Part shown: one piece after another, positions 17,731-20,895 of the stretch
How positions within the stretch are numbered: the stretch's first letter is position 1
Layout: each line of letters starts with the position of its first letter
IMG/VR virus record: IMGVR_UViG_2671180460_000003
Coordinates: 1 to 20,895 of that record
DNA from: a virus
Taxonomy: Duplodnaviria > Heunggongvirae > Uroviricota > Caudoviricetes
Direction: 5' to 3' (one strand)
DNA: 20,895 bases
Notes under the pieces: model-generated
What the model was told of the DNA's origin: nothing
The model's input: the letters and a program-made list of their open reading frames with translations, nothing else
Databases searched by the model: none
Made by a program: the position numbers and the translations under genes

Positions 17731-18320
17731 TGGATACGTTACAGGATGATTATACAAAATTGTTGTATGGCCTGATGCCGCCGGGACCTGCATGGTCAGA
17801 TACCGACGGTGTACTTGACGGTCTGGCACCATCGCTTGTGCGTGTTCACCAGCGGGCTGATGAACTGGTGATTGAAATCGATCCCGGTCAGTCCACAGAG
17901 CTGATTGAACGTTATGAAGAATTGTATGGTTTACCTGATTCCTGTTCCCCTGTCGGAACCCAGACATTACGCCAGCGTCAGCAACGTCTTGAAGCAAAAG
18001 CCAATGTGGCTGGTGGCATAAATAAGCAGTTCTTCCTGGATCAGCTTGAGGCGCTGGGATATACCGGCGTGACGATCGAACAGTTCCAGCACCTGGATGC
18101 AAGCCCCGATCCGGAATGGGGGGATCGCTGGCGTTATTTCTGGCGTGTGACGTTGCCGGTGGATGCCGGTGCTCAGTGGCAGACATGCACGGATGCCTGC
18201 AACACACCGATCCGGACGTGGGGCGATACGGTTGCGGAGTGCGTGATTAATAAATTATGTCCGTCGCATACCGTTGTTTTATTTTCTTATCCAGAGGAGG
18301 CTGAGGATGCACAGGATTGA
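17730..18320 (+). CDS. Tail protein, Mu gp48 / YmfQ-like (P2 gpI analogue)
   Basis: 196-aa ORF with RBS AAGGAG. N-terminus MDTLQDDYTKLLYGLMPPGPAW is typical of this family. Immediately precedes the tail fiber gene. Confidence 0.8.
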   Translation: MDTLQDDYTKLLYGLMPPGPAWSDTDGVLDGLAPSLVRVHQRADELVIEIDPGQSTELIERYEELYGLPDSCSPVGTQTLRQRQQRLEAKANVAGGINKQFFLDQLEALGYTGVTIEQFQHLDASPDPEWGDRWRYFWRVTLPVDAGAQWQTCTDACNTPIRTWGDTVAECVINKLCPSHTVVLFSYPEEAEDAQD

Positions 18321-19515
18321 TACGCTGACAGCGGTAAAAGATAAGTTTGGTCCGGGCAAGAACGGATTTACTGACGGAAATCTTCGCACAGGACGTCTTG
18401 CCACCTGGCTGAACAGTGCCATGTGGGATGCCATTCAGGAGGAAATCTGTGGTGTCATTGAGAAGGCCGGGATAGAACTGAATAAAGAAGAACACGATCA
18501 GCTATATAAAGCCATATTATTACTGGTGGGCGGTGCAATTAACGAAGAGGCATTGCTGAGGAAAAATAATCTTTCGGATGTGGAAGACAAGGATGAGGCT
18601 GTTGAAAACCTCGGATTAAAACCCACGGTGGACAAGGCAAAAAATGCCGTTCAGCGTGATGGTGACACCATGATCGGGGAACTTAAAATCCGTGGTGTTA
18701 ATGCGCTGAGGATTTTCAACGACGCTTTTGGTCTTATTTTTCGTCGTTCGGAAGAGTTCCTGTATCTTATTCCAACACAGGAAAACCAGGGTGAAAATGG
18801 CGATATTGGTCCACTTCGCCCGTTCACTATTAATCTGCGGACGGGTGAAATATCCATGTCGCATAAAGTGTCTGTTGGCGGCGGTTCTCAGGTCAATGGT
18901 GCGCTTGGTATCGGTGTTCAGAACGCGCTGGGCGGAAACTCAATTGCTTTCGGGGATAACGATACCGGCCTGAAACAAAACGGCGATGGCATTCTGGATG
19001 TTTATGCGAATGGTCAGCATGTATTTCGTTTTCAGAATGGCGTGGCGATGGCGTTAAAAAATATTCAGGCCGGAAATGGCAGAATGTTTACGCTATCCAG
19101 TTCTGACAGTTCCACGAAGAACGTAGGGTTTAATTTATGGGGCAATCCATCCAGACCTGTAGTTGCAGAACTTGGTGATGATTCCGGCTGGCATTTCTAC
19201 AGTCAGAGAAATACAGACGGTAGCGTCACATTCGCTGTAAACGGACAGATGACCCCATCAAACTATGGAAATTTCGATGCCCGTTACCAGCAGCGAAATG
19301 GCGGCGTGCAGGATGTGCGTTATGGTTCCGAAATGTATTACAACCCGGGAGGTAACCAGATATCCTGGACATTTCGCTCACCTTCAGGCCACGGATTATC
19401 AGGTATTAATGTGCAGGAAACCGGGAGTAATTCGGCAGATAACATTGGCGGTGTGTATTACCGACCGCTTCAGAAACTGATTAACGGCACCTGGTATAAC
19501 GTGGCGAGTGTTTAA
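18307..19515 (+). CDS. Tail fiber protein (short Mu S-like N-terminus fused to a P2 gpH-like C-terminal domain)
   Basis: ATG 18307 is preceded by GAGGAGG. The C-terminal portion (GGNSIAFGDNDTGLKQNGDGILDVYANGQHVFRFQNGVAMALKNIQAG ... INGTWYNVASV) closely resembles what I recall of the P2 gpH C-terminus. The ORF track start at 18274 lacks an RBS. Confidence 0.85.
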   Translation: MHRIDTLTAVKDKFGPGKNGFTDGNLRTGRLATWLNSAMWDAIQEEICGVIEKAGIELNKEEHDQLYKAILLLVGGAINEEALLRKNNLSDVEDKDEAVENLGLKPTVDKAKNAVQRDGDTMIGELKIRGVNALRIFNDAFGLIFRRSEEFLYLIPTQENQGENGDIGPLRPFTINLRTGEISMSHKVSVGGGSQVNGALGIGVQNALGGNSIAFGDNDTGLKQNGDGILDVYANGQHVFRFQNGVAMALKNIQAGNGRMFTLSSSDSSTKNVGFNLWGNPSRPVVAELGDDSGWHFYSQRNTDGSVTFAVNGQMTPSNYGNFDARYQQRNGGVQDVRYGSEMYYNPGGNQISWTFRSPSGHGLSGINVQETGSNSADNIGGVYYRPLQKLINGTWYNVASV

Positions 19516-19517
19516 CA

Positions 19518-20063
19518 ATGTTGCATTTAAAAAATATTACTGCGGGTAATCCGAAAACCGCAGAACAATACCAGATGACAAAAAAATATGATGTTACCTG
19601 GCTTTTTTCGGAAGACGACAAAAACTGGTATGAAGAACTGAAGAATTTCGCCAGCGACACAATAAAAATAGCTTACACCGGAGATGGTCGCGTGGTATGG
19701 GTCGGTAAGGATGTGACAGGCATTGAACCCCGCAACACCAGTGTTATTGAGGTTCCGGACATTACCGCTAACCGTCGCATTACCGCACCGGGTTACTGGT
19801 TCTACCGCAATGATGAATTTGTTTTCGACTACAAACTTAAAGCGGAAGATGAACGCGATGCCCTGTTACAACAGGCCAGCATCATGACCAGCGAGTGGGA
19901 AAAGGATTTATTGCTGGGGTTAATCAGCAACGAAGACAGGGAAAAGCTGAAAGCGTACCGCATTTACGCGAAATCGCTGCAGGCGATGGATTTCAGCACC
20001 ATCACTGATAAAGTCTCATATAACGCCATTGAATGGCCCGTCTCTCCGGAAGCCTCTTCCTGA
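19518..20063 (+). CDS. Tail fiber assembly protein (Tfa, P2 gpG / Mu U-like)
   Basis: 181-aa ORF immediately after the fiber gene. N-terminus MLHLKNITAGNPKTAEQYQ is the characteristic Tfa start. Confidence 0.85.
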   Translation: MLHLKNITAGNPKTAEQYQMTKKYDVTWLFSEDDKNWYEELKNFASDTIKIAYTGDGRVVWVGKDVTGIEPRNTSVIEVPDITANRRITAPGYWFYRNDEFVFDYKLKAEDERDALLQQASIMTSEWEKDLLLGLISNEDREKLKAYRIYAKSLQAMDFSTITDKVSYNAIEWPVSPEASS

Positions 20064-20086
20064 TTTAATTTATCGCGAGAAAAACT

Positions 20087-20895
20087 ATGTCTGTAGTGAT
20101 ATCAGGTGCGCTGATTGATGGCGCAGGTATCCCCATGTCCGGATGCCACATTATTCTGAAATCCCGGGTAAACACCTCAGAGGTGGTGATGCGCACAGTT
20201 GCCGACGTGGTGACAGGAAACTGTGGCGAGTACTGTTTTGAGGCGCAGACCGGAAAATATTGCGTATATCTGAAACAGGGCTGGCGCGACGAGTACTGTG
20301 TTGGCGATATTGCTGTATACGACGACTCAAAGCCCGGCACGCTGAACGATTTTCTGACTGCCCTGGATGAAGGCGACCTCAAACCCGACGTGGTGAAACG
20401 ATTTGAGGAAATGGTGGCGCAGGCGCAGCAGGGTGCCGAAACCGCAACAGAAAGCGAACGACAGGCAGGGCAACATGCGGATGCTGCCGCCCGGGCAAAA
20501 GAAGAGGTAAAAAAACTGGCGGAAGGTGTTCAGCAGAACGCCGACGCTGTTGCGGAGGGTAAACAACAGGCCGAAAATCTGGCCTCGCAGGTTGAGAATG
20601 CCGCCGCAGAGGTAAAAAAGGACGCTGAAGCTGCTAAACAGGCCGCATCCGGTGCAGAGCAGGCCAGAGCAGATATTGATACTGCGTTATCTGCGACACT
20701 GAAAACGGCGAATCGCCTGTCAGAGCTGGCTGATGAAGGTGAAGAGGCTCAGCAGGAATCCCGTGATAATCTTGGACTGAAAAGCGCAGCCACAATGACG
20801 CCACAGAGCGACATTCGTGACCGGACTGAAGGCCGTCTGGCGACACCTGGCGCATTTGGTTTTGGGCATATTTTTCTGCCCGCAGAGCGTATCCG
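20087..20895 (+). CDS. Second tail fiber protein, lambdoid side-tail-fiber type, 5' portion only (runs off the window)
   Basis: Frame open from ATG 20087 to the window end, so it is absent from the ORF track. N-terminus MSVVISGALIDGAGIPMSGCHIILKSRVNTSEVVMRTVADVV...DIAVYDDSKPGTLNDFLTALDEGDLKPDVVKRFEEMV matches the prophage tail fibre N-terminal domain of Stf-like proteins (from memory), followed by an Ala/Glu/Gln-rich coiled-coil-like tract. Confidence 0.8.
   Translation, partial: MSVVISGALIDGAGIPMSGCHIILKSRVNTSEVVMRTVADVVTGNCGEYCFEAQTGKYCVYLKQGWRDEYCVGDIAVYDDSKPGTLNDFLTALDEGDLKPDVVKRFEEMVAQAQQGAETATESERQAGQHADAAARAKEEVKKLAEGVQQNADAVAEGKQQAENLASQVENAAAEVKKDAEAAKQAASGAEQARADIDTALSATLKTANRLSELADEGEEAQQESRDNLGLKSAATMTPQSDIRDRTEGRLATPGAFGFGHIFLPAERI

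Follow-up and report, generated by a model that had tools for sequence, protein, structure and literature searches.

The 20,895-nucleotide (nt) stretch of DNA analyzed here, in the following called the window, derives from a tailed virus (IMG/VR record IMGVR_UViG_2671180460_000003, positions 1 to 20,895) and carries at its end two tail fiber genes that belong to different families. With a probability of roughly two in three, this end of the window represents the distal part of the late operon of a phiP27-like Escherichia coli myophage prophage that is equipped with two independent, co-oriented pairs of a fiber and its chaperone, both of them functional. The first pair would provide the baseplate fiber, consisting of an N-terminal part of about 120 residues that travels with the baseplate, a mosaic shaft and a tip of the P2 gpH/Mu gpS type, the latter being folded from its C-terminus by a Tfa protein of the gpU/gpG type. 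The second pair would constitute an accessory fiber composed of an anchor (residues 1-95), a short linker, a trimeric stalk of about 125 residues, a joint and a variable C-terminal domain of about 220 residues, which is presumably receptor-binding. Its partner would be a DUF4376 protein of the kind that acts as a tail fiber chaperone in phage V22. Both fibers would be expressed jointly from the late transcript and mounted on the virion, such that fiber 2 adds a second binding specificity or speeds adsorption, as Stf does in lambda. Anchor, stalk and tip of fiber 2 appear to be separately exchangeable.

The window holds the late genes of a temperate phage with a contractile tail. Genes for an M15 endolysin, an HNH protein, small and large terminase subunits, portal, S78 protease and HK97-type capsid are followed by those for a gp6-like connector, a head-completion protein, tail terminator, sheath, tube, chaperone, tape measure and baseplate proteins of the Mu gp43-gp48 type. 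Among named phages, phiP27, an Stx2e phage, comes closest, and a partial protein labelled as originating from E. coli (P0001) is 100% identical to fiber 2 of the window. The last baseplate gene ahead of the fibers (17730-18320; this and all further features lie on the plus strand) encodes a Mu gp48-like protein of the YmfQ family (PF10076, E = 3e-25) and is kept together with the baseplate in all phiP27-like loci. The start of the gene for fiber 1 overlaps it by 14 nt, while the genes for Tfa and fiber 2 are separated by a spacer of 23 nt on the same strand, in which no credible terminator was found; terminator-like and promoter sites between the genes were not above those in shuffled sequences. 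The tandem of two fibers from different families put forward in the preliminary description, i.e. a P2 gpH-like fiber of 402 residues, its Tfa and a second fiber of another family, was thus confirmed by open reading frames (ORFs) and family matches.

Fiber 1 (402 amino acids, 18307-19515) is a Mu gpS/P2 gpH-type protein that matches the tail fiber family phrog_6859 with an E-value of 3e-195. Over 211 aligned columns, its last 207 residues (196-402) share 59% identity with the C-terminal end of P2 gpH (E = 1e-82), and the tip matches Mu gpS (PDB 5yvq, E = 1e-24). Just as in the Mu gpS/P2 gpH class, the homologous C-terminal tip is combined with a gpU/gpG-type (Caudo_TAP) gene that follows immediately. 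This gene (19518-20063) encodes the tail fiber assembly protein for fiber 1, a Tfa of 181 residues (PF02413, E = 3e-24), which matches Mu gpU (5yvq_B, E = 5e-38), is 40% identical to P2 gpG and exhibits pairwise ratios of nonsynonymous to synonymous substitution rates (dN/dS) of 0.08-0.20. Judging from the extent of sequence homology, the N-terminal part of fiber 1 (residues 1-121, 18307-18669) is inherited along with the baseplate genes and presumably serves attachment to the baseplate: phiP27-like loci are collinear through this segment, and homology to one further locus (L003) begins only at 18670. An internal block (18996-19302) is replaceable, as three relatives (L008, L011 and L013) match the window up to 18995 and again from 19303. 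Relatives with a swapped block retain the flanks, the last 70 residues and an identical Tfa, and length variants of fiber 1 with 330, 396, 402 and 451 residues are all paired with the identical Tfa.

The gene for fiber 2 (20087-20895) has, as stated earlier, a start codon and runs past the edge: it begins with ATG at 20087 and stays open for 269 codons within the window, compared to a length of 474 residues in complete relatives. Residues 1-133 match PF08400 ('Prophage tail fibre N-terminal') with an E-value of 4e-61 and 205 bits at a cutoff of 26.6. The collar or anchor domain proper, an immunoglobulin (Ig)-like beta-sandwich, comprises residues 1-95 (20087-20371). By sequence, the N-terminal domain matches the collar domain of Ur-lambda Stf (PDB 9e7m, E = 1e-16), and residues 1-201 match gp40 of the Vibrio myophage XM1 (7kjk_A3, E = 1e-7) in an alignment that includes the gp40 coiled coil. 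For structural comparison a full-length relative (P0006, C-terminal domain 99% identical) was modelled with AlphaFold2 (AF2; predicted local distance difference test score, pLDDT, 62.6). In Foldseek searches this model reached template modeling scores of 0.86 to 9e7m and 0.62 to 7kjk (E = 7e-7 for the latter); matches in the PDB were restricted to the N-terminal domain and those in BFVD covered N-terminal domain plus coil. The previous assignment as a lambdoid side tail fiber N-terminal domain holds with regard to the family, PF08400, but not with regard to the subtype: the anchor is only 44% identical to that of lambda Stf and belongs to a distinct, position-specific group.

The stalk of fiber 2 (residues 102-224, 20390-20758) corresponds to the Ala/Glu/Gln-rich coiled coil already recognized at about 20390-20760. 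The three residues account for 53% of the tract as opposed to 13% of the N-terminal domain, and 80% of the heptad a/d positions are hydrophobic in the best register versus 9-17% off-register, the pattern being continuous. Furthermore, AF2 predicts long helices across the tract, and it is covered by the alignment with XM1 gp40. Collar domain, linker and coiled-coil stalk, the latter probably trimeric, together make up the layout typical of the PF08400 class. A joint motif (NLGLKSAAT...PGAFGFG, 20768-20866), apparent as near-invariant columns in two family alignments, connects the stalk with the variable C-terminal domain, and the window ends 29 nt beyond it. The C-terminal domain comprises about 220 residues and shows 30-99% identity among relatives. 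Domain and PDB profile searches with a full-length relative of fiber 2 did not reveal a gp37-like C-terminal tip.

The region beyond the window edge is accessible through relatives, the loci of which were found by exact-protein look-up with Tfa (24 contigs). Identity to the window amounts to 99.9% for L010 (17730-20895), about 99% for L005, L006 and L007 and 97.6% for L004, with a range of 97.6-99.2% over the cassette for the relatives that contain the complete gene. In L010, fiber 2 remains open for 36 further codons past the window end, and in all complete copies (L004-L009) it consists of 474 residues without an internal stop. A stop codon or frameshift soon after the edge, as might be found in a pseudogene, is therefore absent from the complete near-identical relatives. 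In the complete copies, fiber 2 is followed after 7 nt by a gene for a protein of 187-189 residues with a PF14301 (DUF4376) domain, beyond which lie the end of the prophage and genes of the host. The DUF4376 gene is located in the extended loci only; in L006, for example, it occupies positions 12002-12571 and the C-terminal PF14301 match has an E-value of 3e-16. Neither the window nor the extended loci L004-L009 contain an invertase or a second Caudo_TAP Tfa. Looking downstream for the complete second fiber, a second Tfa and an invertase, as had been advised, hence yielded the first of these, a DUF4376 gene in place of the second and nothing of the third. Both the N-terminal part of Tfa and the DUF4376 portion of the partner protein match the profile phrog_11571. 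This sequence result agrees with a view of DUF4376 as a C-terminal module that fiber chaperones may carry as an alternative; modularity of Tfa proteins has been reported (PMC9608196). A comparison of the DUF4376 protein with the PDB gave no match.

Pairwise dN/dS values range from 0.05 to 0.32 for fiber 2 and from 0.10 to 0.37 for the DUF4376 protein, over pairs that reach a dS of 1.3 and include phiP27 versus the window lineage. The values are indicative of purifying selection and, together with the intact 474-residue copies in relatives, argue against a decaying remnant and against the earlier suggestion that fiber 2 might be left over from module swapping. Of 5426 complete E. coli genomes, 105 contain the Tfa/fiber 2 junction at a coverage of at least 80%.

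It had also been considered that the second ORF could be part of an adjacent unrelated element; the remnant of a neighboring lambdoid prophage would be an example. PF08400 is indeed best known from lambdoid side tail fibers, and several copies are present per E. coli genome, with up to 8 matching places. On the other hand, the ORF begins just behind Tfa on the same strand, and in all complete relatives, which occupy two integration sites (yodB-zinT side and ssrA-smpB side), only the DUF4376 gene is situated between fiber 2 and the attachment-site side or host genes. In addition, phiP27, a complete phage genome, has fiber 2 inside attR. The gene order of phiP27 and the prophage ends of the relatives thus contradict this explanation, which we regard as highly improbable.

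The genetic context of PF08400 anchors was surveyed in a pool consisting of a species-representative genome scan, an IMG/VR scan and the loci collected earlier. It contained 122 PF08400 N-terminal domains, which were classified by tblastn with the window, lambda, P2 and other reference proteins; the surveyed loci are not independent, and the figures given are counts and not statistics. The window-type anchor (MSVVISGAL...) occurs 85 times. The gene immediately before it belongs to the Tfa family in 70 cases, is an unknown one in 15 and is never lom/J, whereas the lambda-type anchor (MAVKISGVLKDG...) is located right after lom/J in 28 of its 31 occurrences and never after Tfa. A DUF4376 gene lies downstream of 56 of the 85 window-type fibers, and 23 more stop at a contig edge. 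Twenty-five loci carry the window-type anchor behind Mu-type baseplates and 26 behind a second contractile-tail type. The latter possesses a sheath (phrog_205, E = 2e-53) and has no tblastn similarity to the structural proteins of the window except for residues 115-402 of fiber 1 and Tfa. In four loci, all of them lambdoid prophages, the window-type anchor belongs to a second PF08400 fiber after stf-tfa. The gene order in these (L062, L063, L089 and L110, about 7000-11500) is J, lom, lambda-type Stf, Tfa and then the fiber with the window-type anchor; the lambda proteins share 100% identity with lom and 95% with J of L063. The idea that anchor subtypes track myophage versus siphophage tails was rejected because the window type is present in lambdoid prophages as well and is found in identical form behind two contractile tails. 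Transposable Mu-like prophages of E. coli (L042-L045) have a third anchor type (MPQLKGVIKT...), which comes after S-U. Their genes are arranged in the order S (269 residues), U, PF08400 fiber, DUF4376, com and mom (10001-13000), and gin, an invertible G segment and a downstream invertase are all missing from these four prophages. Their insertion sites differ by genome and comprise the eut, xdh, rha and flagellar regions.

It is conceivable, if rather doubtful at present, that the window anchor represents a distinct 'second-position' class of PF08400 domains, that is, a portable add-on fiber made up of anchor, coil, variable tip and DUF4376 partner that serves tails unrelated in sequence. Were this true, a tail-independent docking partner would be implied, for which a conserved neck ring like that of XM1 or the fiber 1/Tfa complex would be candidates. 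The hosts of such a unit would be Mu-type myophages, the second contractile type and lambdoid phages that already have an Stf, and Mu-like phages would obtain two specificities from a static tandem as an alternative to the invertible G segment.

Fiber 2 might also be anchored to the fiber 1/Tfa complex or to another partner encoded in the cassette instead of the tail body, resulting in a branched or jointed fiber. Branched fibers are known, examples being LtfA/LtfB of DT57C and gp66/gp63.1 of G7C. Such an arrangement would agree with the gene that immediately precedes the window-type anchor, which is a Caudo_TAP Tfa 70 times out of 85 and never J-lom, with a moron having been inserted after Tfa in the exceptions L016 and L022, and with the first fiber and Tfa being the only genes that co-occur universally, be it with Mu-type baseplates, L15-type baseplates or lambda-type tails. 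The adjacency is, however, equally well explained by linkage inside a mobile cassette, and the upstream Tfa proteins and fiber tips vary in subtype (P2 gpG-like or lambda Tfa-like) while the anchors are similar. Moreover, in both cases for which the structure of the domain has been solved, it is bound to six-fold rings in the tail or neck (PMC12617516, PMC10457771). Altogether, we consider a branched fiber unlikely.

In L016 and L022 the cargo sits exactly between Tfa and the second fiber. L016 (Salmonella, 8650-9956) has genes for a hexapeptide acetyltransferase and an unknown protein on the opposite strand at this place, and L022 (Yersinia similis, 8737-9738) has a gene for a family-2 (GT2) glycosyltransferase. 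Both inserts look like lysogenic-conversion morons. An interpretation of the opposite-strand ORFs in L016 as U'/S' of an invertible segment was rejected, as they encode the acetyltransferase and the unknown protein.

Several points weigh against the presence of two functional, virion-mounted fiber and chaperone pairs. First, one cluster of anchors that are at least 95% identical is split between two unrelated contractile tails (14 versus 16 loci), and such near-identity behind unrelated tails is hard to reconcile with a specific docking surface on the tail. Second, comparison of the head-completion protein (7362-7811) and the tail terminator (8298-8861) of the window with the PDB gave no match to XM1 gp4/gp5, and because of this docking to the neck lacks the support of homology. 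Third, the C-terminal domain modelled alone (AF2, pLDDT 68.7) found no PDB match better than E = 0.13, the weak top matches being phage K gp144 and an R-pyocin fiber. Fourth, the literature on PF08400, vB_Apl-pPE4, the phiP27 fibers and SfMu provided no functional, expression or virion data on the second fiber. Fifth, the window ends at codon 269 of fiber 2, so that we infer its intactness in this particular strain from relatives. Finally, damaged copies exist: fiber 2 is frameshifted in L020, L021, L023, L024 and L029 (Shigella-like), and in L002 (E. coli A31) it is truncated and annotated as a pseudogene.

Given an anchor that is indifferent to the tail type, fiber 2 may instead depend on a partner encoded in the cassette, or it may be a mere passenger in part of its hosts. 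In its strict form, the latter means that fiber 2 and DUF4376 were merely dragged in with a host-range cassette of fiber 1 tip, Tfa, fiber 2 and DUF4376 and are non-docking and silent here. This would be in line with the movement of the cassette as a block, since L003 matches the window with 94.5% identity over 18670-20895 behind an otherwise dissimilar tail, as well as with the 14 and 16 loci just mentioned, the truncated and frameshifted copies, and the direct succession of Tfa and DUF4376 in some E. coli genomes (H63, H64). It is nevertheless decidedly improbable, given the low dN/dS values even for distant pairs such as phiP27 and the window lineage. Furthermore, intact copies of fiber 2 are present in Salmonella, Yersinia and E. 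coli lineages, the anchors of which are 54-76% identical, the tandem arrangement has been retained in three myophage lineages, and the anchor subtype is distinct from that of lambda and never found at the lambda stf position. Two functional pairs remain our preferred reading.

The fiber region is clearly mosaic. The boundaries of homology to other prophages lie at about 18670 and 18995/19303 in fiber 1 and at about 20477 and 20791 within and after the coiled coil, and the tail in front of the matching stretch in L003 is without other similarity to the window. Lambdoid prophages with lambda-type anchors directly behind J-lom can likewise carry the distal part of fiber 2 (coil and C-terminal domain) together with DUF4376. 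Breakpoints in fiber 1 and the coiled coil and the occurrence after J-lom support the horizontal exchange of these determinants that had been suggested on the grounds of base composition. The composition itself had been described too broadly: with GC contents of 0.472 and 0.460, fiber 1 and Tfa are indeed AT-richer than the baseplate genes (0.525-0.548), but the fiber 2 part (0.546) is baseplate-like, such that the lowered GC content is limited to fiber 1 and Tfa.

The length of the coiled coil is polymorphic among relatives. A 12-nt direct repeat (AGAGGTAAAAAA) is present at 20503-20514 and again, 105 nt or 35 codons downstream, at 20608-20619, with 0 copies expected by chance, and the two copies bracket exactly the 35-residue deletion of P0006. 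The repeat was missed by a generic repeat finder and confirmed by pattern search; a search for tandem repeats in 18000-20895 found none. Length polymorphism and repeat-bracketed deletion therefore support the proposal that the low-complexity tract is a recombination hotspot. A phage record, PP818812.1 (Actinobacillus phage vB_Apl-pPE4), is 89.5% identical to the window at the nucleotide level over 19049-20477; the shared stretch comprises the fiber 1 tip, Tfa and the start of fiber 2 and is unexpectedly close for a phage of Pasteurellaceae.

Four of ten related draft contigs stop within fiber 2 (codons 88, 128, 284 and 305), and most homologs in the databases are designated as 'partial'. Joint and coiled coil recur between prophages in one genome, which is probably why contigs and window break inside fiber 2. 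Fiber 2 thus likely acts as a repeat within the genome at which short-read assemblies break off, and this is the likely reason for the window ending within the gene. As a practical consequence, very many database entries end inside fiber 2.

Some further observations concern the surroundings of the fibers. In some complete E. coli genomes (H63, H64 and H50-H55) Tfa apparently adjoins DUF4376 directly, with no PF08400 fiber in between. L002 (10388-12620) contains about 1.4 kb of unannotated DNA ahead of its DUF4376 gene, in a prophage that is otherwise collinear and 90% identical. In L015, a prophage of the second contractile-tail type, a gene annotated as type I restriction endonuclease is located in the middle of the baseplate module (7880-9040). 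The window itself harbors an HNH endonuclease gene just upstream of the small terminase gene (990-1340) and a 53-residue DUF2635 ORF between tail terminator and sheath (8871-9032), both ordinary for this phage type.

The tandem fiber arrangement as such is not new, being annotated in phiP27 (RefSeq) and common in E. coli. New and modestly interesting leads are the position-specific, tail-agnostic anchor subtype and, in Mu-like prophages, the tandem of fibers in place of a G segment. Which hosts the temperate phages of E. coli, Shigella and Salmonella can infect is determined by these genes, and this applies to Stx-converting phages such as phiP27 as well. With its distal module exchanged between the tails of siphophages and myophages, a second fiber that is anchored separately would offer phage and tailocin engineering a receptor-binding unit ready for transplantation, and it would explain how a single recombination event can alter the host range of a prophage.

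Among known systems, phiP27 is the nearest. Its genes L53-L57 share the order gp48-like protein, fiber (L54), Tfa (L55), PF08400 fiber (L56) and DUF4376-type protein (L57), followed by attR. Nucleotide identity is 95-97% through the baseplate genes and fiber 1 up to about 19042 and 80.6% across 19461-20869, and the fiber 2 anchor domains are 97% identical. phiP27 differs in having a fiber 1 of 332 residues with another tip and a fiber 2 of 490 residues that is about 60% identical overall and ends in another C-terminal domain; L57 comprises 188 residues.

With Stf of Ur-lambda, fiber 2 has in common the PF08400 collar domain, the linker and the coiled coil, which in fiber 2 is probably trimeric, and it may follow the same logic of an accessory, non-essential fiber (PMC12617516). 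Unlike stf, the window gene does not follow J-lom directly but stands behind a fiber and Tfa in a contractile-tail phage, and it encodes a C-terminal domain with no relation to the gp37-like tip of Stf and has DUF4376 instead of a Caudo_TAP protein as its partner. In Ur-lambda, twelve N-terminal domains form a collar round the gpV/gpM (tube/tip) junction and carry four trimeric fibers (PMC12617516); homologs of gpV or gpM are not present in the window. The 'collar spike' gp40 of XM1 combines a homologous N-terminal Ig-like domain and a coiled coil in a contractile-tail phage, although with 839 residues and a tailspike-like C-terminus it is a different protein as a whole. Six gp40 trimers sit on the neck, where they bind the rings of the head-completion and tail-terminator proteins before continuing into the coiled coil (PMC10457771). 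The window encodes neck-type proteins (PF05521 and PF23840) as well as sheath, tube and baseplate proteins, and by analogy the neck of XM1 would be a more accessible precedent for mounting fiber 2 on a sheathed tail than the collar of Ur-lambda.

Fiber 1 and its Tfa belong to the Mu S-U/P2 H-G families. Like the G segment of Mu, the locus is predicted from its genes to offer two fiber specificities. Unlike in the G segment and other invertible host-range segments (P1 C and e14 P type), all four genes lie on one strand without inverted S'/U' copies or a gin-type invertase, and the two fibers are arranged in tandem and presumably co-expressed; SfMu, in contrast, has a normal G segment (PMC4406740). 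DUF4376 proteins, finally, are tail fiber chaperones of the Alteromonas phages V22 and A5, and V22 needs its protein for fiber maturation (PMC7289586, PMC10579305). The fibers share no detectable similarity and the DUF4376 gene of the window lineage lies outside the window, yet the V22 genes gp26/gp27 exhibit the same succession of a fiber gene and a gene for a protein of about 190 residues with a C-terminal DUF4376 domain. The gene layout in the extended loci hence points to the partner of fiber 2 as a putative chaperone of the DUF4376 type.

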